Shown here: positions 36,659 through 56,395 of the stretch, one piece after another
How positions within the stretch are numbered: position 1 is the first letter of the stretch
Layout of the letters: each line of letters begins with the position of its first letter
Source of the DNA: Actinomycetota bacterium
Lineage (GTDB): Bacteria; Actinomycetota; Geothermincolia; Geothermincolales; RBG-13-55-18
Direction of reading: 5' to 3'
DNA: 64,000 nucleotides
Assembly: GCA_016931915.1 (NCBI GenBank)
Contig: JAFGDU010000046.1
Location: forward strand, 410-64,409
The notes under the pieces: generated by a model
Database searches by the model: none
What the model was told of the DNA's origin: nothing
What the model saw: only the letters and a program-made list of their open reading frames with translations
Program-made: the position numbers and the translations under genes

Positions 36659-38380
36659 ATGGAAAAAAACTTCAAGTGCTGGCCGAAGGGAGTCTACAAA
36701 AACCTGTCCTACCCGGAGGTACCCATTCAACAGATGCTGCGCTCCGCAACCCTGCAGTGGCCATGGCGTAACGCCATTATCTTCGGGGGGATGGAGATAA
36801 CCTTCCAGGAGCTGGACACCCTGTCCGACCGTTTTGCGACCGCCCTGGCCGCCATGGGGGTGAAGAAAGGGGACCGGGTGGGCATCCATCTTCCTAACTG
36901 CCCGCAGTTCGCCATCGCTTATTACGGGTTGCTCAAGGCCGGGGCCATCTTCGTGCCCCTGAGCCCACTGCTGGCGGAGAGGGAGATAGATTTCCAGCTC
37001 AACGACGCCGGGGTGGAGACCTTCATCGGGCTGGACATGCTCTTCGGCGCGCCACAGCAGGTCATACCGAATACGCCGGTAAAGAGGACCGTCATCGTAA
37101 GCCTGGCGGACTGTTACCCGCCCCTGTCTGCGCCGGTGAAGATGCTGCAGAAGCAGCCGGTGCCCGAGGGGACCATAGATTTCGTTACCCTCGTCACAGA
37201 CTACCCGGCGGAGCCTCCTCAGCTGGAGTTCAACGCCAGGGAGGACCTGGCCCACATCGCCTATACCGGCGGCACGACCGGGACCCCGAAGGGGGTCATG
37301 GTCACCCACTTCAACGGCGTGGCGAACTGCTGCCAGTTCGCCTACTGGTTCGGGGGGGGAGACATCCTCTACGAGGAAGGGATGTTCAAGCTCAAGCGCA
37401 TGGAGGGCGACCGGGATGAGGACCACGCCATCGGGCAAGGGGCGGAGATCTCCCTTATCGTCGTGCCCTGGTTCCATGCCATGGGGGCCATCGGCTATCT
37501 ATCCATGCAGCTCCTGGGCGGAAACACCCTGGTGGTGTTCCCGCGTTTCGACCCCACCGAGTACCTGCAGGCGATCAACAAGTATCGCGCAACGGTATTC
37601 GGGGGCGCCCCGCAGCTCTTCATACCCCTGGTGGAGAACCCGCTCTTCGAGGAGATCGACATGTCGGATATCCGCATGGTCGCCTCCGGGGCGGCCCCCA
37701 TACCCCACCATCTCCTAGAGACCCTGACGGATAAGATACCAGGGGTGATCTGCGAGGCCTACGGCCTCTCGGAGTGCACCATGGGGTGCTGCGCCAATCC
37801 TCCCACCCGCGAGGGATTCCGCCTCGGCTCCGTCGGCCTGCCCATGCAGGACACGGAGATAAAGATAATGGAGGCCGAGGAGGGGAAGGAGGAGATGCCG
37901 GTAGGGGAGATAGGGGAGATCTGCATCAAGGGCCCCCAGGTCATGCAGGGCTACTGGAACAAGCCCGAGGAGACGGCACAGGTGCTCAAGGACGGCTGGC
38001 TCTACACCGGCGATATCGGTAAATACGACGAGGACGGATATATCTACATCGTCGACCGCAAGAAGGACATGCTCATCTACAAGGGCTACAACGTCTATCC
38101 CCGCGATCTCGAGGACGTCATCAACGAACACCCCATGGTCGCCCAGTCCGCGGTGGTGGGTAAGTACGACGAGAACAAGGGCGATATCCCCATCGCCTTC
38201 GTCGAGTTGGTCCCGGGGGGCAGCGTCTCCGAGGAGGAACTGCTGGAATACACGAACGGCAAGCTTGCCGCCTATAAAAAGATAAGGCTGATCAGGATAG
38301 TCGAGGCCCTGCCGGCCAGTGGAGCCGGAAAGATCCTGCGGCGTGAGCTGCGTGACCAGGCCCAGGATTTCGAGGTTTGA
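36659..38380 (+). CDS. AMP-forming acyl-CoA ligase (long/medium-chain fatty acid-CoA ligase family)
   Basis: AMP-binding motif IAYTGGTTGTPKGVMVTH, plus YGLSECT, WLYTGDIG and a C-terminal GKILRRELR. Confidence 0.9.
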   Translation: MEKNFKCWPKGVYKNLSYPEVPIQQMLRSATLQWPWRNAIIFGGMEITFQELDTLSDRFATALAAMGVKKGDRVGIHLPNCPQFAIAYYGLLKAGAIFVPLSPLLAEREIDFQLNDAGVETFIGLDMLFGAPQQVIPNTPVKRTVIVSLADCYPPLSAPVKMLQKQPVPEGTIDFVTLVTDYPAEPPQLEFNAREDLAHIAYTGGTTGTPKGVMVTHFNGVANCCQFAYWFGGGDILYEEGMFKLKRMEGDRDEDHAIGQGAEISLIVVPWFHAMGAIGYLSMQLLGGNTLVVFPRFDPTEYLQAINKYRATVFGGAPQLFIPLVENPLFEEIDMSDIRMVASGAAPIPHHLLETLTDKIPGVICEAYGLSECTMGCCANPPTREGFRLGSVGLPMQDTEIKIMEAEEGKEEMPVGEIGEICIKGPQVMQGYWNKPEETAQVLKDGWLYTGDIGKYDEDGYIYIVDRKKDMLIYKGYNVYPRDLEDVINEHPMVAQSAVVGKYDENKGDIPIAFVELVPGGSVSEEELLEYTNGKLAAYKKIRLIRIVEALPASGAGKILRRELRDQAQDFEV

Positions 38381-38998: not shown

Positions 38999-40051
38999 AT
39001 GGCTGGTACCAAGGTCTGTCCTTATTGCGGCGTCCCGAAGGAGTTCTCCAAGGAGAATACCTGGAACTCCGACGGCACCATCACCCAGACGAAGAACCCG
39101 GACCACCGCGTGCTCTTCTACGAGGCCGAGGGCATGAACCGCATGCTCGCCAATCTCGAGCAACTGGTCGGCGTACTTATAGACCGCATCGTCATCGAGG
39201 GCAAACGCAAATCTACCTACAATTACCTGCAGGGGATGTTCTCGGGGATAAAACTGTTGATCGTCAAGGCACTGCTGCGACGCAGGGTATACGAGACCAT
39301 CTCGGCCCGTGGCGCCATGCTGGGCTACGGCCATTACGAGCTCCTGGATTTAAAGGCCGGCGAGTTCATCAAGGTCTTCGGGCGCAATATATATTCACGC
39401 ACCCTTTTCAGCGGCGATATAGCCGCCGTCTTCAACCTGGTGGAGGGCATCCCGGCCGGGCTGGAGTTCGAGGAGAAAGACGGCGGGACGGTAATTACCG
39501 TAGTGCCCGGCGAAGAGCTCGAGGAGGAGATCGCGACCCGCCTCGAGCGCAAGGTGCTGATGCCCACACCGGGCGATATAGCCTACGACCGCTGCCCCAA
39601 GTGCGGCATACCCCTGGAGTTCAAGGACTATACCTGGGACCTGGAGGCCGGCACCATCACCGACGATAACACGGGGAGGAGGATGGCCATCCTCGGCTCG
39701 GAGGGCATCGAGTCCGTTTTTCGTGAACTCGAGGCCGAACTGGGCGAGGAGATATCCAGGACCATTATAGAGGCCCAGCGCATCTACGTCGTAGAGACCC
39801 TGCACCTGGAGGAGGTGCAGCAGCATCCCGATTACCTCGTGCGCCAGCTGGCCCTGCGGGGGATGGGCAACGTAGTCTCTTTCGATATCTCCGAGGGCGG
39901 TATCCAGGCGACGGTGGAAAACGCCCTGCCCCACCTGTTGGTGGTGGGGTTGCTGCAGGGGATTTTCGAGCTCTTCAGCGGCAAGGGCTCCGACCTGAGC
40001 TATGATTACAACGACAGAGGAACCCTCACCTTGAACGCAAAGACCAGGTGA
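38999..40051 (+). CDS. Hypothetical protein made of two tandem [CPxCG zinc-knuckle + V4R-like] modules
   Basis: Internal duplication: CPYCGVPKEFSKENTWNSDGTIT...EAEGMNRMLANLEQLVG (aa 7-) against CPKCGIPLEFKDYTWDLEAGTIT...GSEGIESVFRELEAELG (aa 199-). The fold guess (V4R, small-ligand binding) is from pattern only. Confidence 0.55.
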   Translation: MAGTKVCPYCGVPKEFSKENTWNSDGTITQTKNPDHRVLFYEAEGMNRMLANLEQLVGVLIDRIVIEGKRKSTYNYLQGMFSGIKLLIVKALLRRRVYETISARGAMLGYGHYELLDLKAGEFIKVFGRNIYSRTLFSGDIAAVFNLVEGIPAGLEFEEKDGGTVITVVPGEELEEEIATRLERKVLMPTPGDIAYDRCPKCGIPLEFKDYTWDLEAGTITDDNTGRRMAILGSEGIESVFRELEAELGEEISRTIIEAQRIYVVETLHLEEVQQHPDYLVRQLALRGMGNVVSFDISEGGIQATVENALPHLLVVGLLQGIFELFSGKGSDLSYDYNDRGTLTLNAKTR

Positions 40052-40151: not shown

Positions 40152-40568
40152 TTAACTCGGCCTGAAGGCCAGGTAGGTCGTGGCTTCGTCCCCCTCTCCG
40201 CTGTGCACGAACTCCGCCTTCATGGGGGTCCCTATCTTGATGGAATCGGGGTTCGAGGCCTCTACGCCCTCTATGCGGGCAACCATCCTGGGGCCTTCCT
40301 TGAGGGTCACCACCCCGGTGCAGTAAGGGTTTTTGCGATCGTAGCCCTGGGCGACCATGTGGGGTGGAGCAACGAATATGCAGGTGAAAGCGGCAAGTTC
40401 CCCTTCACCCACCATCTCGTGCCACTCCATGTCCTCGCCGAAGCAGGAGAGGCAGAAATGTCGCGGTGGAACGTAGAGCTGCCCGCATTTCACGCATTTC
40501 GAGCCCATGAACTTGTCCTCGTCCAGGAACTGGCGGTATGTGATGTCGCTGAAAGGCCGGTCTTCCAT
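40152..40568 (-). CDS. Zn-ribbon/OB-fold DUF35 protein (BbsA-like thiolase partner)
   Basis: CVKCGQLYVPPRHFCLSCFG rubredoxin-like ribbon followed by an OB fold. It lies 4 nt downstream of the thiolase gene. Confidence 0.85.
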   Translation of the reverse strand: MEDRPFSDITYRQFLDEDKFMGSKCVKCGQLYVPPRHFCLSCFGEDMEWHEMVGEGELAAFTCIFVAPPHMVAQGYDRKNPYCTGVVTLKEGPRMVARIEGVEASNPDSIKIGTPMKAEFVHSGEGDEATTYLAFRPS

Positions 40569-40572
40569 GGCT

Positions 40573-41841
40573 CTATCTCCTTTCGAATATGGTGAAGGTG
40601 CAGGTGCCCCCGGTGCCGCCCAGGTTCTGGGTCGCGCCGATGTATAGGTCCCTGCCGGGGATCTGCCGCTCGCCCGCCTCGCCCCGCAACTGCTTCCATA
40701 TCTCGAACATCTGGGCCGTTCCCGTGGCGCCGACGGGATGCCCCTTGCACTTGAGGCCTCCCGAGGTGTTGATGGGCATGCGCCCGTCGCGCCTCGTCTC
40801 GCCCTCCGCTACGGCCTTGAAAGCCTTCCCCTCCTCGAAGAATCCCAGGTCCTCGATGTGGATCATCTCGGCGATACTGAAGCAGTCGTGCACCTCGGCG
40901 AATTGTATGTCCTTTGCGGTGAGCCCCGAGGTGCCGTAGGCCTCGGCGGCGGCGTTCTTGTTGGCCTCGAAGGAAGTTAGGCTGGGGCAGGCGTGAAGGC
41001 CCCTGCCGCTCCCCTGCCCGAATCCCACTACGTAGATGGGATCGTCGGTGAAATTCTTGGCTAACTCCTCGGCCACCAGGAGTATGCAGCTCGCCCCGTC
41101 GCTTATGGGGCAGCAGTCGTAGAGGTGCATGGGCCAGGCCACCGGCGGGTTGAAGGAGGGGTCCCAGAGGGCCTCCTTCTCGTCGGCCCATTCGGGTACG
41201 GGCTGCCCCTTCTTCTCCGCGCGCGCCTTCTTGGCCTGCATGAGGTCGGCTATGGTCTGCTTGAACTGCGCTTTGGGGTTCAGGGGGGCGTTACTGTGGC
41301 TCTTGATGGTGATGTTCATGAGGTCTTCCCGGCCCGCTCCGTATTTATGGAAGTAGGCGGTGGCCAGGGCCCCGAAGACGCCGGGGAAGGTGTAACCGGC
41401 CTCTCCCTCGTAGGGTGATGTTGCCAGGGCCAGCCCCTCGGTGACCTCCTCGGTAGTGCATTTGGACATCTCCTCGACCCCTCCGGCCAGCACGATATCG
41501 TACATGCCCGATGCGATGGCCATGAGTCCGTCCCTCATGGCCAGGGTGCTGGAGGCGCAGGCGCCCTCCGTCCTCGTCACCGCCTTGGGCGCCAGCCCGG
41601 CCAGGTCCGCGATGATGGGGCCCCAATGCGCCTGGTGAACGAAGAAATCGTTGCTGAAATTGCCGATCCATGCGGCTTGTATGTCCGCCGGGTCGATCCC
41701 CTTGTCCACGTTCGCGAGCATCTCGCTGTAGGCCTCGGCGAAGACGTCCTTGGAGTCCTTGTCAGGGAACATCCCGAAATTCGACATACCCGCTCCGACG
41801 ATGGCCACTCCCCTGCCCAACTTTCTCTTTCCTGTCATCAC
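40573..41841 (-). CDS. Thiolase-domain protein, SCP-x/BbsB type
   Basis: GVAIVGAGMSNFG, TEGACASSTLAMRDG (active Cys), HDCFSIAE and GGTGGTC near the C-terminus. Confidence 0.88.
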   Translation of the reverse strand: MMTGKRKLGRGVAIVGAGMSNFGMFPDKDSKDVFAEAYSEMLANVDKGIDPADIQAAWIGNFSNDFFVHQAHWGPIIADLAGLAPKAVTRTEGACASSTLAMRDGLMAIASGMYDIVLAGGVEEMSKCTTEEVTEGLALATSPYEGEAGYTFPGVFGALATAYFHKYGAGREDLMNITIKSHSNAPLNPKAQFKQTIADLMQAKKARAEKKGQPVPEWADEKEALWDPSFNPPVAWPMHLYDCCPISDGASCILLVAEELAKNFTDDPIYVVGFGQGSGRGLHACPSLTSFEANKNAAAEAYGTSGLTAKDIQFAEVHDCFSIAEMIHIEDLGFFEEGKAFKAVAEGETRRDGRMPINTSGGLKCKGHPVGATGTAQMFEIWKQLRGEAGERQIPGRDLYIGATQNLGGTGGTCTFTIFERR

Positions 41842-41939: not shown

Positions 41940-42347
41940 TCAATCGATCTTGATGCTTCCCGTTCTTTCCTCTATGAAAGCGACGATATCTTCGGTCAAC
42001 GTTCCGGGGCCGAAGACGCCGTCCATGCCGATCTCCTTCAACTCCACGTGGTCCTGTTCCGGAAAGACCCCTCCGACCAGGAGAAGGAAATCATCGCGCG
42101 CTCCCTGCGCCTCCAGCTCCTCGACCAGTTCCCGGCTCCATTCCAGGTGAGCACCTGAGTGGACCGAGAAGCCTATGACGTCGACGTCCTCCTGTATGGC
42201 CGCCTCCACCACTCCGGCTACGGTCTTGAAACCGAAGAATATGGTCTCCATGCCCGCCTCCGAGAGCGCCTTGGAGACGGTCATTATCCCCCGCCAGTGC
42301 CCGTCAAGGCCCGGCTTGAAGAGAAGCACCCTTATCTTCTTCTCCAT
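41940..42347 (-). CDS. Coenzyme-B12-binding small subunit of acyl-CoA mutase
   Basis: KPGLDGHWRG contains the DxHxxG base-off/His-on motif, within a flavodoxin-like fold (DVIGFSVHSGAH...LLLVGG). Confidence 0.88.
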   Translation of the reverse strand: MEKKIRVLLFKPGLDGHWRGIMTVSKALSEAGMETIFFGFKTVAGVVEAAIQEDVDVIGFSVHSGAHLEWSRELVEELEAQGARDDFLLLVGGVFPEQDHVELKEIGMDGVFGPGTLTEDIVAFIEERTGSIKID

Positions 42348-42362
42348 CTCACCCCTCCCCTC

Positions 42363-44042
42363 TCAAGCCACGAATGGCAGCTGCCAGATGCCCCAGACCT
42401 CCCGGTAGACACCGGTTATCTCTCCCAGGCTAGCCCCGGCCATGGTGAGCTCGCTCACCACCGGCAGGACGTTCTCCCTCTTCTCGCAAACCTCCCGCAG
42501 CTGGTCGAGGAGGCCGGCTACCTTCGACTCGTCCCTATCCTGCCGCAGCTTCTTCAGGCGGTCTTTCTCGATCTCGGCAGCACGGGGATTGGTGCGGAAG
42601 GGCGGGGTCGCCTCCTCGCCCTCCATGACGTAGCAGTTGACGCCGATTATGCGCTCTTCGCCGCTCTCCTGGTCGCGGCGGCGCTTGTTGAAAGCCTTGC
42701 TCATCTCGTTGAAGAGCCAGCCCGTGTTCAGGGCCTCGACCACTCCACCCATCTCCTCGATGCGCATGAAATAATCCCAGATGCGCTCCTCCAGCTCACG
42801 CGTGAGCGACTCCACGTAATAGGATCCCGCCAGGGGATCGACGACGTTCGCCGCCCCGGTCTCCTCCTGGATGAGTTCCTGTGTGCGCACCGCCAGGCGC
42901 ACCGACTCCTCCGAGGGCAGGCATATGGCCTCGTCGTAGGAGTTGGTGTGCAGGGATTGCGTACCCCCCAGCACGGCCTCCAGCGCCTGGTAGGCGGTGC
43001 GAATTATGTTCACCATGGGCTGCTGTGCGGTGAGGGAGCATCCCGCGGTCTGCACGTGGAAGCGGAAGCGGTAGGCGTCGGGGTTTTCGGGATGGTAGCG
43101 TTCCTTCATCAGCCGGTACCAGAGCTTGCGGGCGGCTCGGTACTTGGCTACCTCCTCGAAGAAATCGCGGTGGGCCGAGAGGTGGAAGGCAAGGCGGTGC
43201 ACGAAGTCGTCGATCTTCCATCCTCGCCTCAGCAGTTCCTCGATGTGGGCGACGGCATTGGCGAGGCCCATGCCGATCTCCTGCACGGCATCGATGCCGC
43301 CCTCGCGGTAGTTGTAGGTGGTGAAGTTGATGGGGTTCCAGCGCGGCGCTTCGCCCATGGCGGTGCAGTACTCGATGAGGTCACAGGCTAGCTTCAACAG
43401 GTCGGCCGGCTTGAGCGAGCCCCACGGGATATATCCTATGGTCATGGTGAGGATATCGTTCTGGGTGGTCCCGGCCAGCTGTTCCTTGCGCATCCCACGC
43501 TCCCTGGCCACGTTGAAGTACATGGAGGTGATAGCGGCCGAGGTCATGGGCTCCACTACCAGGGCTACGCTCATCTTGTCTATGGGCAGGTCCTCGACCA
43601 GTGCCTCCACCCCGCGGATGGAGTAGAGGGGCACCCCCTCCTTGCCCACCTCGTGGGCCGCACCGTGGACTTCCTGATCGGGATCGACTCCCGAGAAGGT
43701 CAGGGAGTCGACGGCGGCCGAGAACCCGGTCTCTCCCTCCTCGTACAGCATCCTCCAGCGATCGTTGGTCTCCTCCGGCGTTCCATGTCCGCTGAACATA
43801 CGTATGGTCCAGTGCCTTCCCCGGTACATGGTGGGGTACACGCCACGCGTATAGGGCGGCTTCCCGGGAAAACCGATATCTGCGAGGTAATCGATGTCGG
43901 AGGTATCGAGAGGCGTATAGAGATCCTTGACCGGGATTCCCGCATCGCTCTTGAACTCCGCCTTGTGCTCCTCCCAGCCCTCCTTCTCCTTTCTCCAGTC
44001 CTCCAATCCTTGCCTGATCTCATCACTGTCAGCCATCTTCAT
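42363..44042 (-). CDS. Acyl-CoA mutase large (substrate-binding TIM-barrel) subunit, divergent
   Basis: PPYTRGVYPTMYRGRHWTIRMFSGHG, GTTQNDIL, FHVQTAGCSLTAQQP, GGTQSLHTNSYDEAICLP and VVDPLAGSYYVESLT are methylmalonyl-CoA-mutase family blocks. The start is ATG 44042 or 44036; the 799-aa ORF-track N-extension overlaps the ACAD gene and is rejected. Confidence 0.88.
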   Translation of the reverse strand: MKMADSDEIRQGLEDWRKEKEGWEEHKAEFKSDAGIPVKDLYTPLDTSDIDYLADIGFPGKPPYTRGVYPTMYRGRHWTIRMFSGHGTPEETNDRWRMLYEEGETGFSAAVDSLTFSGVDPDQEVHGAAHEVGKEGVPLYSIRGVEALVEDLPIDKMSVALVVEPMTSAAITSMYFNVARERGMRKEQLAGTTQNDILTMTIGYIPWGSLKPADLLKLACDLIEYCTAMGEAPRWNPINFTTYNYREGGIDAVQEIGMGLANAVAHIEELLRRGWKIDDFVHRLAFHLSAHRDFFEEVAKYRAARKLWYRLMKERYHPENPDAYRFRFHVQTAGCSLTAQQPMVNIIRTAYQALEAVLGGTQSLHTNSYDEAICLPSEESVRLAVRTQELIQEETGAANVVDPLAGSYYVESLTRELEERIWDYFMRIEEMGGVVEALNTGWLFNEMSKAFNKRRRDQESGEERIIGVNCYVMEGEEATPPFRTNPRAAEIEKDRLKKLRQDRDESKVAGLLDQLREVCEKRENVLPVVSELTMAGASLGEITGVYREVWGIWQLPFVA

Positions 44043-44080: not shown

Positions 44081-45220
44081 CTATCCCTTCAGCAATGCCC
44101 GCGAGATCACCAGCCTCTGTATCTGGTTGGTGCCCTCGTATATCTGGGTGATCTTGGCGTCGCGCATCATGCGCTCCACCGGATGGTCCTTCATATAACC
44201 ATACCCCCCCATCACCTGGATGGCATCGGTGGTTACCCGCATGGCCGTATCCGATGCCTTCATCTTGGACATGGCCGAGAAGATCGAGAGGTTGGGATCC
44301 TTGCTGTCCGCCATGCCGGCGGCCTTGTACACCAGCAGTCGAGAGGATTCCACCTCGGTTGCCATGTCCGCCAGCATGAAACCCACTCCCTGCATCAGTC
44401 CTATGGGCTTCCCGAAGGCCTGGCGATCCCGCGCCCATGCTACGGCGCACTCCAGGGCGCCCTGGGCTATTCCCAAAGCCTGCGCGCCCACCAGTGGCCG
44501 CGAGTTGTCGAGGGTCTTCATGGCGGTCACGAATCCGCTGCCCTCTTCCCCCAGGCGGTTCTCTGCGGGGACACGGCAATCGTCGAATACAAGCTCCGTG
44601 ACCTGGGCGGCGCGCAGGCCCATCTTGTCCTCCGTCTTGCCTGCGGAAAGGCCTTCCACGTCCCCCACGCAGAAGGCGCTTATGCCCCTGTATCCCTTCT
44701 CCGGGTCGGTCATGCAGAAAACGGAGTGGATCTTCGCCAACCCCCCGTTGGTGATGAAACACTTCTCCCCGGATATGACGTACTCGTCACCGTCCCGGCG
44801 GGCCACGGTCTTGGTGGCACCGGCGTCGGAACCGGAGTCGCGCTCCGTGAGGCAGAACGCCGCCAGTTCCTCGCCCCTGGCCGCGGCGGGCAGATACTTC
44901 TGCTTCGTCTCCTCCGAGCCGGCTATGACGATGGGGTAAACCGCCAGCTTCTGCACCACGAATATAAGGGAGGTGGTGGCGCATATACGCGCCAGTTCTT
45001 CGCCTACTATGCAGCAGGAGAGAAGATCCGCTCCCGATCCCCCATATTCCTCGGGGATGGCGTAGCCGAGCAGGCCCTGGGAGGCCAGCATTTTCTGTAT
45101 ATCCCAGGGGTATTCTCCACTGCGGTCGATATCCGCCGCACGCGGTGCGACCTTCTCCTCCGCCAGTCTACGTATCTCCTTGCGCAGCGCCTCCTGCTCG
45201 GACGTCAAACTGAATCCCAT
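44081..45220 (-). CDS. Acyl-CoA dehydrogenase
   Basis: Classic ACAD pattern: CLTERDSGSDAG, GEKCFITNG, QAFGKPI and YEGTNQIQRLVISR. Confidence 0.92.
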   Translation of the reverse strand: MGFSLTSEQEALRKEIRRLAEEKVAPRAADIDRSGEYPWDIQKMLASQGLLGYAIPEEYGGSGADLLSCCIVGEELARICATTSLIFVVQKLAVYPIVIAGSEETKQKYLPAAARGEELAAFCLTERDSGSDAGATKTVARRDGDEYVISGEKCFITNGGLAKIHSVFCMTDPEKGYRGISAFCVGDVEGLSAGKTEDKMGLRAAQVTELVFDDCRVPAENRLGEEGSGFVTAMKTLDNSRPLVGAQALGIAQGALECAVAWARDRQAFGKPIGLMQGVGFMLADMATEVESSRLLVYKAAGMADSKDPNLSIFSAMSKMKASDTAMRVTTDAIQVMGGYGYMKDHPVERMMRDAKITQIYEGTNQIQRLVISRALLKG

Positions 45221-45323: not shown

Positions 45324-46088
45324 TTAGAACGTGAACAGGCTTATCCCGCCGCTGACCTCTACGGTTTCACCGGTTACGAAGCTGGCCTCCTCGGAGGCAA
45401 GAAAGGCGATGACCTCCGACAGCTCCCTTGGGTCCCCGGAACGGCGTATCGCGACCCTCTTTATAATGCGTTCGCGGAAGGGCTCGGCCACATCGTAAAA
45501 ACTTCCCGCATCGAATACTCCCAGCACCACGGCGTTGCAGGTGATGTTCTTGCGCGCGCCCTCAAGGGCAACCGTCTTTGTAAGCCCTATCAAGCCGGCC
45601 TTGGTGGCGGCGTAACTGCACTGGCCGAATCCACCCATGGTGCCCGTTACCGAGGAGACGTTTATGATGCGCCCCCAGGCTTTCTCGGCCATACCCGGGA
45701 ATACGGCCTTGATGAGCAGGAAGGGCGCGCTGAGGTTTACGGCCACGTCGTTGTCCCAATCCTCCTTGCTCATGTCGGTAACGGTGATGGCGCGCACGAT
45801 GCCGGTAGCGGCGTTATTGACCAGGATATCCACGCTATCCAGCTCGCGCGCAACTCTTTCCACGCCTTCATTGATAGAAGACTCGTCGGAGAGATCCATC
45901 TTGACCGCAATCGCCTTGCGGCCCTTGGCCTCTATCTCCTTGACCACGTCCTGGGCCTTGGCCTCGTTGCGGTTATAAACCAGCGCCACGTCAGCACCGT
46001 GCTCTGCCAGCACCAGGCCGTGTACCCTGCCCAATCCTCCCGAACCACCGGTCACCAGCGCTACCTTGCCCTCAAGAGACATAAACAC
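45324..46088 (-). CDS. SDR-family oxidoreductase (FabG / 3-hydroxyacyl-CoA dehydrogenase-like)
   Basis: VALVTGGSGGLG, LVNNAA, and catalytic S...YAATK. Confidence 0.88.
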   Translation of the reverse strand: MFMSLEGKVALVTGGSGGLGRVHGLVLAEHGADVALVYNRNEAKAQDVVKEIEAKGRKAIAVKMDLSDESSINEGVERVARELDSVDILVNNAATGIVRAITVTDMSKEDWDNDVAVNLSAPFLLIKAVFPGMAEKAWGRIINVSSVTGTMGGFGQCSYAATKAGLIGLTKTVALEGARKNITCNAVVLGVFDAGSFYDVAEPFRERIIKRVAIRRSGDPRELSEVIAFLASEEASFVTGETVEVSGGISLFTF

Positions 46089-46117: not shown

Positions 46118-46540
46118 CTACCCCTTGCTCAGCAATGGTTTACCCGTATGGTAAGCCCAGCCATGGCACTGGGCTACGATAACCCCCTCCGCGTCCGTCA
46201 CCTTCATGCGGTAGAAACCCATCTTGCCCGCACGTTGTACCAGCTCGACCTCGGCCGTCATATCTCCGACTGTTTTAGGAGCTGCCAGGAAGTCTATTCC
46301 CACCGATAACGCCATCGCTCTGCTCCCGAAGGAATTCGCTGCCGCCCCGAAGGCCACGTCGGCCAGGGAGAACATCACCCCGCCATGTATCATACCCATA
46401 AAGTTCAGGTGCTCTTCCCTGAGCTTCATGGAGACCATTGCCCATCCAGGCCTTATATCTGTCAGCTCTGCACCGAGGCTGGACGCGTATCTATCCTTTG
46501 CTATATATTCCCGCGTTTCTTCCCCTACCCTATTCTCCAC
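46118..46540 (-). CDS. PaaI-family hotdog thioesterase
   Basis: GMIHGGVMFSLADVAFG motif. GTG start follows GGGAG. Confidence 0.8.
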   Translation of the reverse strand: MENRVGEETREYIAKDRYASSLGAELTDIRPGWAMVSMKLREEHLNFMGMIHGGVMFSLADVAFGAAANSFGSRAMALSVGIDFLAAPKTVGDMTAEVELVQRAGKMGFYRMKVTDAEGVIVAQCHGWAYHTGKPLLSKG

Positions 46541-46904: not shown

Positions 46905-47516
46905 TTATACCCCTTGACTCATACGGTCTTCTGCTCCCCTGTTCTCTTTTCTTACTATACCCTCCATGAGGATCTTCATGAATGCCGAATACACCCCGTC
47001 CAGGCTCAAGCCGCTCTCGATCAACAGGTAGGGGCTGCTGGAGAGATCCACGATGCCCTGCACCATGTAGGCGAAGACGACGGGGTTGACATCGGAGCGG
47101 AATTCCCCCTGCCTCGCCCCCTCCTCGATGATACTCGTGACAGCGCTTACGATCTTGCGGTAGAAATCGCCGTAGACGCTGAAAACGTCCGGGAAGAACG
47201 TCTCCACTTCCTTGACCAGGGACGGTTTGATATAGGACACCTCGTCCACCACGTGCTTGCTCATGAGATACAGCTTGGTCATGGCGTCTGCATCGAGATC
47301 CAGGATCTCCTGCATGCGCTTGAGGATCTTTCCGGCCCTGCGGTTGAGCGCGGTCGTGAAGAGCTCGTCCTTGGAAGAGAAGGCCTCGTAGATGGTCTTC
47401 TTGCTCATGCGCAGTCTCTGCGAGAGCTCGTCCATGTTGAAGCGGCGGTATCCGACCTCAAAGGCATACTGTTCAGCCTCTTCAAGAATCCTCTTCGACC
47501 TCTCGTCTCCCGTCAC
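46905..47516 (-). CDS. TetR/AcrR-family transcriptional regulator
   Basis: HTH FNMDELSQRLRMSKKTIYEAFSSKDELF. Confidence 0.88.
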   Translation of the reverse strand: MTGDERSKRILEEAEQYAFEVGYRRFNMDELSQRLRMSKKTIYEAFSSKDELFTTALNRRAGKILKRMQEILDLDADAMTKLYLMSKHVVDEVSYIKPSLVKEVETFFPDVFSVYGDFYRKIVSAVTSIIEEGARQGEFRSDVNPVVFAYMVQGIVDLSSSPYLLIESGLSLDGVYSAFMKILMEGIVRKENRGAEDRMSQGV

Positions 47517-49246: not shown

Positions 49247-49966
49247 TCAATGCGACGTAGAGACCAAACCCCTCACCTGCGTAGGAACCCACCGCGAAAG
49301 TGCCTCCGCCCATTCCACCATCGTGTCCTCGGGGTATCCTCGCGCGCCGGTGTAAGCGGGGTCAAGGGTTATATCCGAGCGGAACTGTTGCAGCACCAGC
49401 ATTCTCGCGCCCCCTATCCTCTCCGCAAGGGACTCGAGATCCTCTCGACCTACGAGTCCCGGAACAACCGTGCAGCGGAACTCGTGCTCCAGGCCGCTGC
49501 CGATTATGGTGTCGATCGACTCCCCGATACGCAGCGGGTCCACCGGCCTTCTCACCACATCCGCATACCTGTCGAGTGATGTCTTGAGATCCATGGCCAC
49601 GAACTCGACCGCCCCCTGCGACAAAACCTCCGCCAGCAGCCGCGGCCGCGAGCCGTTGGTGTCCAGTTTCACGGCCATGCCCAGGTCCCTCAGCCCGTCA
49701 CACAGATGCGGCAGGTCATCGTGGATGGTGGGCTCCCCCCCGGTGATCGATACCCCGTCTATCCATCCTCTCCGCTCTTTCAGGTAATGGGCAAGACCGT
49801 CCCAGGTGATGTTGTCCGCGTTCTCTCCCACCTCTATCAGCTCAGGATTATGGCAGTAAGGGCACCTGAAATTACAGCCGGCGAGGAAGAGCACCGAACA
49901 TAGCTTACCCGGCCAATCCAGCATACTCGTGGGCAGGAGAGCCCTCATGTTCTCGAGGCAGGACAT
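49247..49966 (-). CDS. nrdG: Anaerobic ribonucleoside-triphosphate reductase activating protein (radical SAM)
   Basis: LDWPGKLCSVLFLAGCNFRCPYCHNPEL, ITGGEPT, and operon context. Confidence 0.9.
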   Translation of the reverse strand: MSCLENMRALLPTSMLDWPGKLCSVLFLAGCNFRCPYCHNPELIEVGENADNITWDGLAHYLKERRGWIDGVSITGGEPTIHDDLPHLCDGLRDLGMAVKLDTNGSRPRLLAEVLSQGAVEFVAMDLKTSLDRYADVVRRPVDPLRIGESIDTIIGSGLEHEFRCTVVPGLVGREDLESLAERIGGARMLVLQQFRSDITLDPAYTGARGYPEDTMVEWAEALSRWVPTQVRGLVSTSH

Positions 49967-49967
49967 T

Positions 49968-50213
49968 TTAATTCAAGTGATCGGAGATATCCGTGGTAGA
50001 CGGCACGGTACAACGCCAGGCGAAGACCTCGCTCCCACTGTCATCTACCACCACTATCGAAGGCGTGCACAATACGCTGTAATAGGCCGCCTCCGCCAGG
50101 CCGTCCGCCTGCTCGACGTCGTATATCTCCGTCGCGGGGAAACAGCTGGCTACCTCCTTAGCAGCTGGACACTTTTGACAGTCCTGCTTCACGAATACCT
50201 TCAGATGCTGCAC
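49968..50213 (-). CDS. Small thioredoxin/glutaredoxin-fold protein (CxxC)
   Basis: KVFVKQDCQKCPAAKE...TPSIVV matches the redoxin beta-alpha-beta pattern. It lies between nrdD and nrdG and overlaps the nrdD 3' end by 56 nt. Confidence 0.65.
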   Translation of the reverse strand: MQHLKVFVKQDCQKCPAAKEVASCFPATEIYDVEQADGLAEAAYYSVLCTPSIVVVDDSGSEVFAWRCTVPSTTDISDHLN

Positions 50214-52998
50214 GCTCGAAACCCCCTTTCAGTCCCGTCCTTACGCGGCCCTTCAACTCTCCCACTTTCCCCTTGTTCCACGTGGTGACCTTGGAGAAAT
50301 AACCCACGATGCGGGTTATACCGTAGACGTTGCTCGATCCGCAGTTGGGGCACTCCTCGTGCAGGCCGCGACTGGTCGTCCGGCAGTCTTCACATACGGT
50401 GAACTCCGGTGAGAAAGCGATCTGGGACGATTGTGTATTGCGGAAAGTCTTGATGACGAAGTTCTTTATGGACTCTGGATCTGGTTCATGCTCGCCCAGC
50501 CAGACGTGACATATCGCCCCCGCCTCGATGAGGGGGTGGAAGAGACTCTGCTTCTGCACCCTCTCGATATAATCGATATCCGCCTCCACGTTGAGGTGTA
50601 CGCTGTTGGTGTAGTAGAACTCGTCTCTTTCGTCGCTGCCTTTGAGCACCTCCATCGCCTGGGAGGGGTAGTACTTCATATCCAGTTTGGCCAGCCGGTA
50701 ACCGCTGGACTCCGCCGGTGATTCCTCCAGCACCAGGTTGATGCCGTATTGCTGAGAGAGCTTTTTGCACAACAGGTTCATGTTTGCCACCACCTTGAGG
50801 CCGAACTTAAGGGCTTCAGGTGACTCGTGGAGCTCCCTTGAGGTATGGTATTGTACCATCTCGTTAAGGCCGAGGAGCCCTACGAGGTAGGTCAGCCTGT
50901 CCATTCTGAGGTATTTCTCGCCGTCCTTGGCATCGCAGAGTACGGAGAGCGGCCCCCCCACGCCCTGCGCCATAAGGCTGGCGATGAACTCCTTTTTCTG
51001 CAGGTGGGCCTTGGCCACCATCTGCATGGCTTTCTCCAGCTCGTGCAGGAGGACCTCGTCGGAGCCGTTCGCCTTGTATGCGATGCGCGGCAGGTTGATG
51101 GTGATGTTCTGGAGCGCCGTGAACCGCATCTTCTCCGGCGTCATCACCTCCTGCAGGTCCTTCTCGTTCAGTTTTAATTTGAGCCTGCAGCATTGGGATA
51201 CCGTGATCTCGTCCCCGCGGTCGAAGACGAAATAGGTGATCCCCTGCCGCGATGCAACCTTGCATGCGAGGTCCAGGAACTCCTCGTGCCCATCGGTGCG
51301 GAAGAAGTCCTCGTTGATATGGAGCAGGGGCTTGGGAAAGACGAAGGTCTTACCCATGGCGTCTCCCTCCAGGTAGACCTCGAAGAGCGCGGTTAGAAAG
51401 TCCTGGGCTTCCTTCTCGTAATCCTTGTAGGTCTTGCCGGTGTACACCCCTCCGGGCCCGATGGCCGGAGCGTCCCTGAAATGCCGCGGGATATTCCAGT
51501 AGAGGTTGAAGTCTGTGAAGACCACCTGGCTTCCCCTGGCGCCCGCCAGCTGGTTGAACTCGTAGATTAGCATCTGTGCCAGCTGCCCGATGCGCGCGCG
51601 ATCCAACCCCACCATATACGGCGCGAAGAACATGTTTACGGCCTCCCAGCCGATGGCGCCCGCATAGTGAGACTGCAGAGTCGAGGCCATCTTGACCATG
51701 TGGCCGATCAAAACCTCGGGGTGCTTCGCGGGGCGCGAGGTACTGGTGATATTGGGCAGCGAGATACCGTACTTCTTGATGTAATCAAGGCTGTGCCCGC
51801 CGCAGTTATGAGAATAGATGCCGTTGGCGATAAGCGTGCCGCTATCCGTGGTGACGTCGTAGATATATACGTCCAGCACGTCGACTGGCTCCGCCATGAC
51901 CACCTTTACCCGCCGCGCCGAGGGGGAAGATCCCCACTTCCTCCTCTCGCGGCTGCGGCGCATCCGTGCCCCCGACGATGCCTGCGCCGCCTGGGATACG
52001 AGCTCCTGCAGCCTCTGGTGGGCGACGAACACGTCCTCGGCGTTGAATCGCAGCTTGAAGGAGGATGCGTTGGCTTCGAGGAGATGGGTTATGTTAACCT
52101 CCTCCAGGCCACGCATCTTTCCCTCCTCCACTTCGAGGGTCTCGAGTTCCTCTCCCTCGCTGACAAGGGAGGCGGGTTTTATCTCCTCGGCGGTGATCAC
52201 GGGATGATCGTGGGTTACCACGCAGAACTTGCCGTCGGAGGTCGCCAGGAAGATCATCTCCTTCCCCAGGCGGTCTTTCTTCACCACCCTCTTGATGTCC
52301 GTCCAGTTACCCCCGCGGTCGAGCATCTCCATCTCGGCCGGGTACTTCACGCGCACCGTCGGCTCGGGCCTGGTCTCGTCCGGTAGCAGGTGGTAGAGCT
52401 GCTCCATGGTGGTAGTGAAGACAATGTGCGAGCCCTTGACCCTCCAGTGCACGACCGTATCTCCGAGGTAGGAATAGGGGCGGATAATAAAGCCGAGGTC
52501 GTGCAGGTGTATGTCGCCTACCATGTGGGCGCTGGCGATATCGTCGGAAAAGACGTTGCGCAGTGCGAACTCCTTGAGGATGGCTTCCGCCAGGGTCAGG
52601 TTTATCGACTCCGGATTGTGGGTCGTGTTGGAGTTCTCCTTGTTTGCGCTGGTTATGATCTGCTCCACGTCGTACATGGGCAGGCCCACGTGCGAGTGCC
52701 TCTTGTGCATGGTTCCCAGGCCGCGCTCCAGCAGTTCCAGGTCCACGAGTTCTCGGATTATCGAGGTGGTCACGGTGTTCAAGCGCCCCTGTATTATCCT
52801 CTCCTCTACCCTGTCCGCGATCTCCTGCGCCAGGTCCTGGCTGGCATCGGTTTCCAGAACCAGAGAGTTGACGATCTTGCTCTTATCCCAGAGGTTTATC
52901 TCCTCCTTGGACGAGGTGCTCACCAGTAGTGCTATATCGGTGGCGTCTTCCGCCCTCTCCCTCCTTTTCAGGACCCTTATATTGCTGGCAGCAGACAC
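50158..52998 (-). CDS. nrdD: Anaerobic ribonucleoside-triphosphate reductase (class III), intein-containing precursor
   Basis: GDIHLHDLGF, a C-terminal Zn site CEDC...CPNCG and the glycyl-radical motif TRIVGYFS. At 946 aa it carries a 223-aa insertion; without that it is 723 aa. Confidence 0.93.
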   Translation of the reverse strand: MSAASNIRVLKRRERAEDATDIALLVSTSSKEEINLWDKSKIVNSLVLETDASQDLAQEIADRVEERIIQGRLNTVTTSIIRELVDLELLERGLGTMHKRHSHVGLPMYDVEQIITSANKENSNTTHNPESINLTLAEAILKEFALRNVFSDDIASAHMVGDIHLHDLGFIIRPYSYLGDTVVHWRVKGSHIVFTTTMEQLYHLLPDETRPEPTVRVKYPAEMEMLDRGGNWTDIKRVVKKDRLGKEMIFLATSDGKFCVVTHDHPVITAEEIKPASLVSEGEELETLEVEEGKMRGLEEVNITHLLEANASSFKLRFNAEDVFVAHQRLQELVSQAAQASSGARMRRSRERRKWGSSPSARRVKVVMAEPVDVLDVYIYDVTTDSGTLIANGIYSHNCGGHSLDYIKKYGISLPNITSTSRPAKHPEVLIGHMVKMASTLQSHYAGAIGWEAVNMFFAPYMVGLDRARIGQLAQMLIYEFNQLAGARGSQVVFTDFNLYWNIPRHFRDAPAIGPGGVYTGKTYKDYEKEAQDFLTALFEVYLEGDAMGKTFVFPKPLLHINEDFFRTDGHEEFLDLACKVASRQGITYFVFDRGDEITVSQCCRLKLKLNEKDLQEVMTPEKMRFTALQNITINLPRIAYKANGSDEVLLHELEKAMQMVAKAHLQKKEFIASLMAQGVGGPLSVLCDAKDGEKYLRMDRLTYLVGLLGLNEMVQYHTSRELHESPEALKFGLKVVANMNLLCKKLSQQYGINLVLEESPAESSGYRLAKLDMKYYPSQAMEVLKGSDERDEFYYTNSVHLNVEADIDYIERVQKQSLFHPLIEAGAICHVWLGEHEPDPESIKNFVIKTFRNTQSSQIAFSPEFTVCEDCRTTSRGLHEECPNCGSSNVYGITRIVGYFSKVTTWNKGKVGELKGRVRTGLKGGFERAASEGIREAGLSKVSSC
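51805..52473 (-). mobile_element. Mini-intein (223 aa) within NrdD
   Basis: The insertion sits between RPY and CGGHSL. Block A is SYLGDTVV (Ser1) and block B is VVTHDHP. Blocks F/G read VYIYDVTTDSGTLIANGIYSHN, followed by the +1 Cys. Junction codons were checked at nucleotide level. Confidence 0.85.
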
Positions 52999-53027: not shown

Positions 53028-53492
53028 CTATACGTCTTCCTTCTTTTCCAGCAACTGCCCCAGCTCGCTCTGGAACTCCGTGATGTCTTTGAAATCCTTG
53101 TAAACCGAGGCGAACCTGAGATAGGCGACTTCGTCTACCTCTTTAAGTTTTCTGAGTACGGCCAGCCCTATCTGGCTTGCGGGTATCTCCGGTTTACCCT
53201 CCGCCCTTAGCTCGGCTTCTATCTCGTAGGCAAGGTTCTCTATCTCCTGGCTGGTCACCGGCCTTTTCTCGAATGCTTTGCGCAGGCCGATCAGAATCTT
53301 CTCCCGTTTGTAGGTCTCTTTGTCTCCGTTCCTCTTTATCACCGCCACCGGAAACTGCTCGAATCTCTCGAAGGTGGTGAACCTCTTCCTGCAGCCTTTG
53401 CATTCCCTTCTACGCCTGATTACCTGCCCGTTTTCCGCACTTCGCGAGTCAATAACTTTGCTGTCCGGGTTTCCGCAAAAGGGGCATTTCAT
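53028..53492 (-). CDS. nrdR: Transcriptional repressor NrdR
   Basis: MKCPFCGNPDSKVIDSR...RRRRECKGCRKRFTTFE zinc ribbon plus an ATP-cone. The ATG at 53492 lies 7 nt after GGGGAGGGG. Confidence 0.95.
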   Translation of the reverse strand: MKCPFCGNPDSKVIDSRSAENGQVIRRRRECKGCRKRFTTFERFEQFPVAVIKRNGDKETYKREKILIGLRKAFEKRPVTSQEIENLAYEIEAELRAEGKPEIPASQIGLAVLRKLKEVDEVAYLRFASVYKDFKDITEFQSELGQLLEKKEDV

Positions 53493-53517
53493 CCTGTATC
53501 CCCTCCCCAAACAGAAA

Positions 53518-54426: not shown

Positions 54427-54626
54427 GGGGGTCAGCCCTCCATTTTCAACGTTGGGGGTCAGGCCTCCACAATTCATTTCATTGCGCAATTCTAAAGGGC
54501 AGACGTGAGCTTTGATGAATTAGGTGGATTGACACGAACCTTCTAAAATTACACATAATCGTCTATGCGTATGGTCGGACGATTTCTTTGCTTGATTATG
54601 TGGAATGTGGAGGGACTGACCCCTTA
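54427..54626. repeat. Three copies of a 16-17-nt motif (two direct, one inverted) in the gpsA-lmeA spacer
   Basis: GGGGGTCAGCCCTCCA (54427-54442) and GGGGGTCAGGCCTCCA (54454-54469). The reverse complement of 54607-54625 is AGGGGTCAGTCCCTCCAC, which abuts the gpsA stop codon. Confidence 0.7.
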
Positions 54627-55655
54627 CTTCAGGAGGAAGTCGCGGTAGAGGGTCTCCTCCGTCTCCCCCTTCAGGCGGCGGGTCATGAGCTTCTCGAGCA
54701 TGTCCGCAGGCGATGCCTTTTCGTCCAGGACTGCGTTAACGCCCATGGCTATGGGGACCTCGACCCCTATCTCGTTCGCCATGGCTATCACCGCTCGCGT
54801 TGCGAACACGCCCTCTACGACCATCCTGGATTCCTCGAGCAATGCCGCGGGTGAACCTCCCGCACCCAACTTCTCGCCATAGCCCCGGTTGCGAGAATGC
54901 CTGCTGATGCAGGTTACTATGAGGTCCCCGATACCGCTCAGTCCGGAGAACGTTATGGGGTTCGCTCCCAGAGCGCTGCCGAAACGTGCCATCTCTGCCA
55001 GGCCGCGGGTTATAAGGGTCGCCTTGGTGTTGTCCCCCAGTCCCAATCCGTCCAGCATGCCCGCCGCAAGTGCGATTACGTTCTTGTAGGCTCCTCCAAC
55101 CTCTACCCCCACAACGTCCGTGTTGGTATAGACACGGAAGTAGGGAGAGCTGAAGGAAGCCTGCAAGGAGCGGGATAGTCCGGGATCCACGGACGCTATG
55201 ACGGTGGCGCTTGGTACCTTCCTCGCCACCTCCTCGGCATGATTGGGGCCGGAGAGCACTGCCACCCCGGCGCCCGCTTCCCGCCCCAATTCCTCCGCTA
55301 TCGTTTCCGAGAGGCGTCTGTTGGTACGGTAGTCAAAGCCCTTGGCCAGGTTCAGCACCACCGCTTTTCGTGGTATCGAGACCGCGACATCGTGCGCCAC
55401 TTCCCGGGTCCAGCGCGAGGGGACTGCCATCACCACTACCTGCGTTCCCCCCAGGGCCTGCGAGAGCTCTGCGAATGCTTCCATGCCGGTTGGAAGCTCT
55501 ATATCGCTTAAAAAGAGGGGGTTCCTTCTCTCTACGTTTATCCCGCTGACCACCTCCGGCTCCCTCGCCCATATGCCGACCTGGTGACCGGAAAGAGCCA
55601 GGTGGGCGGCCATCGCCGTGCCCCAGCTTCCCGCACCGACCACGCCGATCTTCAT
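54624..55655 (-). CDS. gpsA: NAD(P)H-dependent glycerol-3-phosphate dehydrogenase
   Basis: MKIGVVGAGSWGTAMA..., and the GYGEKLG region. ATGA overlap with the plsY stop. The upstream part of the 559-aa ORF is rejected. Confidence 0.93.
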   Translation of the reverse strand: MKIGVVGAGSWGTAMAAHLALSGHQVGIWAREPEVVSGINVERRNPLFLSDIELPTGMEAFAELSQALGGTQVVVMAVPSRWTREVAHDVAVSIPRKAVVLNLAKGFDYRTNRRLSETIAEELGREAGAGVAVLSGPNHAEEVARKVPSATVIASVDPGLSRSLQASFSSPYFRVYTNTDVVGVEVGGAYKNVIALAAGMLDGLGLGDNTKATLITRGLAEMARFGSALGANPITFSGLSGIGDLIVTCISRHSRNRGYGEKLGAGGSPAALLEESRMVVEGVFATRAVIAMANEIGVEVPIAMGVNAVLDEKASPADMLEKLMTRRLKGETEETLYRDFLLK

Positions 55656-56293: not shown

Positions 56294-56395
56294 CCAGAGC
56301 CACCTTTCCCTTTTATGCCATCAACATCCTCAAAGCCTGGGGATGTACCGTTGAATATAACACATTCGCGCCGCCGGGGTTTCAGGAACTCGCGC

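Follow-up and report, generated by a model that had tools for sequence, protein, structure and literature searches.

The stretch analysed here (the window) comprises 64,000 nt of an Actinomycetota genome of the class Geothermincolia (contig JAFGDU010000046.1, assembly GCA_016931915.1) and carries, on its minus strand, the genes of a two-subunit acyl-CoA mutase. The large, substrate-binding subunit is encoded at 42,363–44,042. Its open reading frame (ORF) starts with the ATG at 44,042, which is preceded by GAGGGG, and specifies 559 residues that include the blocks WTIRMFSGH, QNDILTMTIGYIPW, TTYNYREGG, FHVQTAGCSLTAQQP and GGTQSLHTNSYDEAICLP. The small, B12-binding subunit (135 aa; 41,940–42,347, minus strand) begins 15 nt downstream. 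It scores 82.7 bits against PF02310 and 113 bits against TIGR00640 (cut-off 57), and its DxHxxG motif reads D15-G-H17-W-R-G20 (GLDGHWRG). The large subunit belongs to a group of proteins, termed here the F/Y/N clade, with Phe, Tyr and Asn at the three positions that hold Tyr89, Arg207 and His244 in methylmalonyl-CoA mutase (MCM). Very probably it is an active acyl-CoA mutase other than MCM and represents a new specificity class.

The large subunit is a true member of the acyl-CoA mutase family. This assignment is firm because of its Pfam and TIGR00641 scores, its predicted fold, its CoA and adenosyl contacts and the adjoining DxHxxG small subunit. It scores 558.5 bits against PF01642 (MM_CoA_mutase; cut-off 22.1) and 529.1 bits against TIGR00641, which is above the cut-off of 303.8. 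The equivalog models for MCM (NF006944) and for IcmF reach 441 and 243 bits, below their cut-offs of 876 and 1500, respectively. An AlphaFold2 model built from 77 homologues (pLDDT 82.3, pTM 0.88) was compared with solved structures by Foldseek, which gave a TM-score of 0.91 to 2-hydroxyisobutyryl-CoA mutase (HCM; 4r3u), of about 0.89 to MCMs and of about 0.80 to IcmF. HCM 4r3u is also the closest solved relative in sequence (phmmer E 1e-128, 38% identity), and MCM is 34% identical. The MCM residues that we take to contact CoA and the adenosyl group (Y75, T77, M78, R82, T85, R87, S114, T195, Q197, Y243, R283, H328, Q330 and E370) are all retained in the aligned window protein. Among sampled clade members R82 is Lys, Gln or Ser in some, and T77 is Thr, Asn or Ser. 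The initial annotation had taken the protein for a genuine member of the family whose active site is remodelled and whose C-terminal half is conserved. The scores, the TM-score of 0.91, the retained contacts and the small subunit support this description, and the motifs FHVQTAGCSLTAQQP and GGTQSLHTNSYDEAICLP occur in the translation as it quoted them.

In MCM, the hydroxyl of Tyr89 and Arg207 bind the substrate carboxylate, and His244 lies at the thioester carbonyl. Isobutyryl-CoA mutase (ICM) is characterised by Phe and Gln at the Tyr89 and Arg207 positions, respectively. The register of the window protein was taken from HMMER pairwise alignments to human MCM (2xij/8gju), Propionibacterium shermanii MCM (1req/5req) and HCM 4r3u, and from an hhalign profile-profile alignment of 77 clade members with 17 canonical MCM and ICM-like sequences. 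HMMER pairs WTIRQYAGF with WTIRMFSGH, which places Phe83 (codon 43,794–43,796) opposite Tyr89. The flanking Gln88, Ala90 and Phe92 are replaced by Met, Ser and His in the RMFSGH block (43,785–43,802), as the initial annotation had read at these nucleotides. At the position occupied by Arg207 in MCM and by Gln in ICM and HCM, HMMER pairs KEFMVRNTY with TMTIGYIPW and sets Tyr204 (codon 43,431–43,433) opposite Arg207; hhalign keeps the Arg207 column opposite Tyr in the same register. The Tyr that the annotation had proposed from an ungapped alignment is thus found by both methods, and a 156-sequence MAFFT alignment shifts the column to Ile205 by treating the Tyr as a one-residue insertion. The MAFFT register was rejected because HMMER and hhalign are concordant. 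The sole uncertainty of register is this one-residue length difference after QNDIL, and in either register the Arg207 column holds no Arg and no Gln. Finally, HMMER pairs SGYHMQEAG with TTYNYREGG (43,296–43,322), in which Asn244 (codon 43,311–43,313) lies opposite His244. The loss of His to Asn was correctly called before, with two slips: the Asn is residue 244 rather than 243, which is a conserved Tyr, and the span 43,314–43,802 given for the three sites leaves the Asn codon just outside its lower bound. The motifs that the annotation quoted for MCM and HCM agree with the HMMER alignments. In these, as in hhalign, Tyr, Arg/Gln and His do not return to the canonical positions. The Phe/Gln pair quoted for ICM agrees with the F/Q/H group of ICM-like proteins, a comparison that includes no characterised ICM sequence.

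The remodelling is wider than these three sites and than the initial annotation saw. Further departures from MCM are F117V, A139P (in GVPLYS), T166V, N168E, S285A and F287H. The strand ALVVEP (43,548–43,565) replaces SMTMNG of MCM and SFTINP of HCM, with Val162 at the Thr166 position and Glu164 (codon 43,551–43,553) at the Asn168 position. In RLAFHLS, His287 (codon 43,182–43,184) occupies the Phe287 position and is, from its placement in the alignment, a candidate replacement for the lost His244. Arg246 in YNYRE is an ordinary residue, as canonical split-type MCM and ICM-like proteins read YHIRE. A role of Arg246 as a relocated carboxylate binder was considered and rejected, since ICM-like proteins share it.

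A 2024 study of an RCM-type hydroxyisobutyryl-CoA mutase (PMC11599936; RCM, (R)-3-hydroxybutyryl-CoA-specific mutase) lists six residues that it selected for their distance of about 5 Å to the acyl group: I95, V122, V172, H174, Y252 and F296 (Bacillus massiliosenegalensis numbering). By alignment, these correspond to MCM positions 89, 116, 166, 168, 243 and 287. The six positions read Y, A, T, N, Y, F in MCM; F, A, T, N, Y, F in ICM-like proteins; I, D, T, N, Y, F in HCM; and I, V, V, H, Y, F in RCM. The ICM, HCM and RCM signatures derive from alignments to PDB entries, from one supplementary table and from the literature on the family. The window protein reads F, A, V, E, Y, H, with Tyr at 207 and Asn at 244 in addition. 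As aligned, this predicted first-shell signature fits none of MCM, ICM, HCM and RCM.

The altered residues are conserved throughout the clade. In an alignment of 77 sequences of 59–95% identity, Phe83, Asn244, Arg246 and His287 are each invariant (77/77), and Glu164 is present in 72. The Arg207 column holds Tyr in 60 sequences, Phe in 11, Ile in five and Leu in one. The pocket substitutions are not due to chance, because Phe and Asn are retained in every sequence across this range of identity. The best 120 database matches (59–100% identity) all contain R[ML]FSG[HFY], QNDILTMT.G[YF] and T[TG]YNYREGG. A possible clade of motif carriers with conserved neighbours, raised in the initial annotation, was recovered by these database searches: the carriers are monophyletic in 100 of 100 neighbour-joining bootstraps and have recurrent neighbours. 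Their sister group is another uncharacterised cluster. Representatives of other 50%-identity clusters reach 48% identity at most, and canonical split-type MCM (Y/R/H) and ICM-like (F/Q/H) proteins are 40–46% identical. The contrast set consisted of loci from a family-wide motif search, which are mostly canonical MCM or ICM-like.

The DNA pattern for NFT.YNYREGG occurs in at least 119 species-level genomes, all of them metagenome-assembled genomes (MAGs) among the matches listed. The Asgard hosts include Promethearchaeota/Loki-, Hel-, Hermod-, Hod-, Heimdall-, Thor-, Odin-, Jord- and Freyarchaeia, and Ca. Syntrophoarchaeum carries three copies. The clade is common in Asgard archaea, where it was recovered from well over 100 MAGs, and in subsurface bacteria. 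The relatives of the window genome in Geothermincolia (Ca. Solincola and Ca. Geothermincola) have mutases of 88–95% identity. Other bacterial hosts are Syntrophorhabdus, Syntrophobacterales, other Thermodesulfobacteriota and the Peptococcaceae SCADC/UBA4795 (Firmicutes). Two further searches returned only uncultured members among the matches listed; one of the two, with an Asgard member as query, gave only MAGs in its best 80 loci, with Promethearchaeum MK-D1 not among the matches listed. Database names of clade members are all 'methylmalonyl-CoA mutase (family protein)'. Full-text literature searches found no description of the motif clade. A characterised mutase with the same motif combination, which would have counted against the earlier observation, was not found, and the clade members recovered are all metagenomic among the matches listed.

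The wider family is itself diverse at these sites. Among the 150 nearest 50%-identity cluster representatives (P0121–P0270), many uncharacterised ones carry Asn (YN.RE) or Asp (YD.RE) at the His244 position together with varied residues at 89 and 207, and one of them (P0129) comes from the cultured Streptomyces sp. AV19. The pocket diversity of the family far exceeds the handful of characterised specificities, and loss of His244 is unusual among studied enzymes and not among sequences. The find is less exceptional than at first sight because many other metagenomic mutase clusters also lack His244.

As both carboxylate ligands are gone, with no Arg in the Arg207 column and Tyr89 lost, productive binding of methylmalonyl-CoA is not expected. 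The MCM label fails the alignment tests at Tyr89, Arg207 and His244 alike. It is very improbable that the protein is nevertheless a methylmalonyl-CoA (or ethylmalonyl-CoA) mutase that binds the carboxylate in another way. The uniform database naming speaks for this reading, and published Asgard reconstructions (the Hermodarchaeota paper) count such genes as MCM. Yet Phe, Ile and Leu are tolerated at the Arg207 column in addition to the loss of the Tyr89 hydroxyl, NF006944 gives 441 bits against a cut-off of 876, and Arg246, being shared with ICM-like proteins, supplies no new feature. Canonical Y/R/H (MCM-like) split mutases exist separately in related organisms (locus L024). Around the 128 clade loci over which neighbours were counted, unbiased clustering of the genes left after the named partners yielded no recurrent methylmalonyl-CoA epimerase or carboxyltransferase, only lineage-restricted genes. 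Matches in Peptococcaceae SCADC, Hermodarchaeota and Syntrophoarchaeum had prompted the idea of a (1-methylalkyl)succinyl-CoA mutase for alkane degradation. This candidate was rejected, since a free carboxylate would remain on such a substrate and the genes around the SCADC locus are housekeeping genes.

The window enzyme is probably an active adenosylcobalamin (AdoCbl) enzyme, because the CoA and adenosyl contacts, the DxHxxG small subunit and the G-protein chaperone MeaB are retained, the last in 56 of the 128 loci and mostly archaeal; the small-subunit gene (mutS) accompanies 109. Most archaeal members have MeaB as a direct neighbour. A catalytically dead paralogue acting as a scaffold or regulator, like the MutA β chain of P. 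shermanii MCM, could be argued from the loss of His244, which has been the subject of mutagenesis (1e1c, the structure of H244A), and from the tandem large-subunit genes at some loci. We hold this to be highly unlikely. The F/Y/N protein is the sole large subunit at most loci, the window included; it keeps the CoA and adenosyl contacts, its own B12 subunit and, at 56 of the 128 loci, MeaB; and the window protein scores 106 bits against the MutA β chain (1e1c_B) and 306 bits against the α chain. The invariance of the remodelled pocket residues points to selection on a working site, which also counts against a dead paralogue. Retention of the AdoCbl and CoA machinery, together with the loss of both carboxylate ligands, points to an active mutase for an uncharged acyl-CoA and not to MCM.

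At some clade loci, namely L003 (6873–10680; Peptococcaceae SCADC), L107, L110, L143, L197 and L207, a single small-subunit gene is flanked or preceded by two large-subunit genes. The second copy in SCADC has a degraded pocket (QNDIGTMPLSLMCRD, YNCREGG). By analogy with P. shermanii MCM, this arrangement hints at a heteromer in which one chain may be non-catalytic.

The mutase genes lie within an operon whose minus-strand order is TetR regulator, PaaI-like thioesterase, short-chain dehydrogenase/reductase (SDR), acyl-CoA dehydrogenase (ACAD), mutase large subunit, mutase small subunit, SCP2-type thiolase and DUF35 protein. The TetR-family gene at its head (46,905–47,516; PF00440) is followed by the same order in L007, L116, L170 and L206, and the operon is found in relatives of the window genome. 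The hotdog-fold thioesterase (46,118–46,540) matches PF03061/DUF4442, with PaaI as its best PDB matches. By domain and PDB searches, the SDR (45,324–46,088) is nearest to a FabG-like structure, followed by (3R)-hydroxyacyl-CoA dehydrogenase and acetoacetyl-CoA reductase. The ACAD (44,081–45,220; Pfam ACAD domains) ends 38 nt upstream of the mutase start. Its very top PDB matches are generically named, and the best named ones are short-chain/butyryl-CoA dehydrogenases (7p98, 1jqi and 1buc). The SCP2-type, archaeal-like thiolase (40,573–41,841; Thiolase_N/Thiolase_C_1) reaches 392 bits with NF004720 and 363 bits with the archaeal acetoacetyl-CoA thiolase model, both below the cut-offs. It is followed by a DUF35/ChsH2-type protein with a Zn ribbon and an oligonucleotide/oligosaccharide-binding (OB) domain (40,152–40,568; PF12172, PF01796), the usual partner of SCP2-type thiolases. 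Beyond the 3´ end, on the plus strand and convergent, lies an AMP-forming, FadD-like acyl-CoA ligase (36,659–38,380; PF00501/PF13193), which is kept at the same place in L007, L114, L153, L201 and L203. In a Geothermincolia operon whose mutase is 72% identical, an AtoB-type thiolase and an acetoacetate-CoA ligase (928 bits, cut-off 521) are swapped in. An Rfam scan near the operon gave no cobalamin riboswitch and no other match, and promoter and terminator scans of the operon gave background level only.

Across the 128 clade loci, the ACAD is found in 34 and the SDR, in several lineages, in 21. The SCP2-type thiolase occurs in 13, DUF35 in 11, and the α and β subunits of electron transfer flavoprotein (ETF) in 12 and 11. 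For Loki and Hod archaea, the ACAD forms part of a divergent ACAD-ETFβ-ETFα unit; an ACAD also adjoins the mutase in Syntrophorhabdus. Helarchaeota carry the adenosyltransferase CobA beside MeaB. One Syntrophobacterales locus reads TRAP transporter-mutL-mutS-SDR-crotonase-thiolase-DUF35, and a Hbd-type dehydrogenase adjoins at none of the 128. A few Asgard loci add a 2-hydroxyacyl-CoA dehydratase (6), a CoA-transferase (8) or an HpaB/AbfD-like protein (5).

For the substrate, we tentatively prefer, short of an even chance, an uncharged C4–C5 alkyl acyl-CoA, that is, the interconversion of isobutyryl-CoA and n-butyryl-CoA or of a C5 homologue. Phe at position 89, as in the F/Q/H group, and the interchange of Tyr, Phe, Ile and Leu at 207 point to an uncharged, largely apolar substituent. 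The C4 context is consistent with it: the butyryl-CoA-dehydrogenase-like ACAD lies directly upstream, ACAD with or without ETF recurs elsewhere, and the partners are of acetoacetyl type. As the catalytic subunit of a two-subunit AdoCbl-dependent mutase, the protein would perform the 1,2-shift of the thioester group typical of the family. Acting on an uncharged short acyl-CoA, it would link a branched skeleton to the butyryl-/3-hydroxybutyryl-/acetoacetyl-CoA node, which would be served by the ACAD, the SDR, the thiolase with DUF35, an acyl- or acetoacetate-CoA ligase and the thioesterase. The hydrogen bond to the thioester carbonyl, normally made by His244, may move to Asn244, to His287 on the neighbouring strand, or to both. 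The alkyl reading covers every gene of the operon and, for a pathway directed toward isobutyrate, the thioesterase as well; the hydratase alone is missing.

Several points weigh against an alkyl substrate. Glu164, His287 and Asn244 are conserved, polar and in or near the first shell, which is unexpected for a purely alkyl group, and the first-shell assignments themselves are an alignment to residues listed for another enzyme. The window operon has no enoyl-CoA hydratase, and a crotonase adjoins the mutase at only three of the 128 clade loci. The SDR resembles (3R)-specific enzymes and would better match a hydroxyacyl product. No MeaB was found among the window ORFs scanned, which were a part of all ORFs. 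No cultured or biochemically characterised clade member was found among the matches listed. Finally, the Hermodarchaeota MAG DZ1M.92 holds a canonical ICM-like F/Q/H paralogue beside its clade member (L087, L124), which disfavours a simple redundancy with ICM. The clade mutase and the canonical ICM- and MCM-like paralogues of Asgard genomes are probably not redundant.

Some of these points fit better with a hydroxyacyl-CoA mutase like HCM or RCM, which we consider a close rival, if a rather unlikely one. It would interconvert 2-hydroxyisobutyryl-CoA and 3-hydroxybutyryl-CoA, or a homologue, with Glu164, His287 or both holding the hydroxyl, and the thiolase would receive acetoacetyl-CoA formed directly from the 3-hydroxyacyl-CoA through oxidation by the SDR. 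HCM 4r3u is the best match in both sequence and structure, and Glu164 stands at the position of His174 in the residue set of about 5 Å listed for the (R)-specific RCM-type enzyme. An SDR adjoins the mutase without a hydratase in Freyarchaeota (mutL-mutS-SDR-SDR), Jordarchaeia and Geothermincolia, a layout with its counterpart in the acetone cluster (SDR-MeaB-mutS-mutL) of Desulfosarcina and Desulfococcus. The likeness of the SDR to (3R)-hydroxyacyl-CoA dehydrogenase and acetoacetyl-CoA reductase is consistent with such a product, as are the acetoacetate-CoA ligase and acetoacetyl-CoA thiolase of the 72%-identity sister operon. The pocket, however, agrees poorly: in both known types of hydroxy-mutase the Tyr89 position is filled by Ile, and in the clade by invariant Phe, and the substitution I95F left the RCM-type enzyme with about 2–3% activity (PMC11599936). 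The position of Asp117 in HCM and of Val in RCM is Ala in the window protein, and the first shell shares two of six residues with RCM and one of six with HCM. This reading would not account for the close linkage of the ACAD, or of ACAD-ETF at Asgard loci; no gene for a thiamine pyrophosphate-dependent lyase lies near the operon, and the AMP ligase is FadD-like and not an identified 2-hydroxyisobutyryl-CoA ligase.

The signature F/A/V/E/Y/H with Tyr204 and Asn244, unmatched by characterised enzymes, could also reflect a rearrangement new to the family, on an amino-, oxo- or otherwise polar-substituted or a bulkier branched acyl-CoA. Candidates would be 3-aminobutyryl-CoA, the lactyl-/3-hydroxypropionyl-CoA pair or the 3-hydroxyisobutyryl-/4-hydroxybutyryl-CoA pair, with a triad of Glu164, His287 and Asn244 reading the substituent. 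We regard this as unlikely. The new conserved acidic residue, Glu164, and the presence of canonical mutases of ICM-like and MCM-like type beside the clade in Asgard genomes argue for it, as do the amino-acid-fermentation genes near Asgard loci (2-hydroxyacyl-CoA dehydratase, CoA-transferase, HpaB/AbfD-like). These neighbours occur in few loci, however, and may reflect lineage synteny; the strongest recurrent partners are ordinary β-oxidation-type enzymes, and no direct evidence favours any particular substrate.

Known acyl-CoA mutase specificities are few (MCM, ICM, ECM, HCM/RCM and PCM), and with each of them a pathway or a biotechnological route became accessible. As a large and conserved group whose pocket fits no known specificity, the clade is a concrete candidate for a further one. 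A mechanistic question is posed by the lost His244 in combination with the invariant His of the adjoining strand. It is possible, if somewhat doubtful, that the clade is a new functional class in the full sense, with an undescribed substrate pair, Asn244 and His287 in place of His244, and Glu164 reading a polar substituent. If so, the Asgard 'methylmalonyl-CoA mutase' step is mis-assigned and an unrecognised acyl-CoA isomerisation belongs to core fermentative metabolism. Counting the clade as methylmalonyl-CoA mutase in metabolic maps is probably an error. The label is at present carried over into genome-based models of Asgard archaea, Ca. Syntrophoarchaeum and subsurface Actinomycetota. Should it be wrong, the propionate and odd-chain routes that were inferred, and likewise the alkylsuccinate rearrangements that have been proposed, would have to be reconsidered. 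The clade combines large size and phylogenetic prominence with a uniform mis-labelling and an odd mechanism; its fold and chemistry are familiar, and other divergent clades exist.

The rest of the window contains housekeeping genes, some with features of their own. The ORF of the anaerobic ribonucleotide reductase NrdD (50,158–52,998, minus strand; 946 aa) has a 223-aa insert at 51,805–52,473 between ...IIRPY and CGGHSLDY.... Its first residue is Ser, VTHDHP lies within it, and its last residues, ...IYSHN, are followed by a Cys. Judged by these features, the insert looks like a mini-intein; Pfam Intein_splicing falls short of its cut-off (E = 0.0014), and the insert divides the NRDD match into two parts. 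NrdD is flanked by NrdG (49,247–49,966) and probably by NrdR (53,028–53,510), assigned from the gene order in L007. Between the acyl-CoA ligase and the DUF35 gene, a 350-aa ORF (38,999–40,051, plus strand) matches no Pfam or NCBIfam family. It consists of two CxxC zinc-ribbon-like halves that form an internal repeat (CPYCGVPKEF...TWNSDGTITQ and CPKCGIPLEF...TWDLEAGTITD), and it is absent at the same place in L007, where the mutase is 94% identical. The GpsA ORF (54,624–56,303, minus strand; 559 aa) has a 217-aa N-terminal extension with no domain match, and its start is probably over-extended. A 213-aa ORF (55,652–56,293, minus strand) overlaps it, in the position expected from der-plsY-gpsA, an order typical of bacteria.

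Among known systems, MCM (P. shermanii MutB, human MMUT) shares family, fold and annotation with the window protein, and the same radical chemistry would be expected. It differs in having Tyr89, Arg207, His244, Phe117, Ala139, Thr166, Asn168 and Phe287. HcmAB of Aquincola tertiaricarbonis (4r3u) has the same split into a large subunit of about 560 aa and a B12 subunit of about 135 aa, with the same CoA and adenosyl contacts. In contrast to the Phe, Ala, Tyr, Asn and Val/Glu/His of the window protein, HCM carries Ile90, Asp117, Gln (207), His (244) and Thr/Asn/Phe (166/168/287). RcmAB (Kyrpidia tusciae and Bacillus massiliosenegalensis, with an RcmAB-like enzyme in the acetone pathway of Desulfococcus biacutus) is also split, is often clustered with an SDR, and is described as only distantly related to HcmAB. 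By the listed residues, it shares Val at the Thr166 position and a residue other than Asn at 168. The set I95/V122/V172/H174/Y252/F296 of the B. massiliosenegalensis enzyme, compared through these listed residues, stands against F/A/V/E/Y/H in the clade. Identity with RCM was therefore rejected: the first-shell set differs, and no sequence in our sets fits the RCM numbering. ICM (IcmAB/IcmF) and the F/Q/H split mutases resemble the clade in having Phe at the Tyr89 position, in the loss of the carboxylate-binding Arg and in a gene context centred on C4 acyl-CoA metabolism. ICM-like proteins differ in reading KEY(I)AQKE(W/Y) with Gln and YHIRE with His244, and in keeping Thr166, Asn168 and Phe287. 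As the residue tests for MCM, ICM, HCM and RCM all failed, the window protein is filed under none of the four; it most resembles ICM in its logic and HCM in its sequence.

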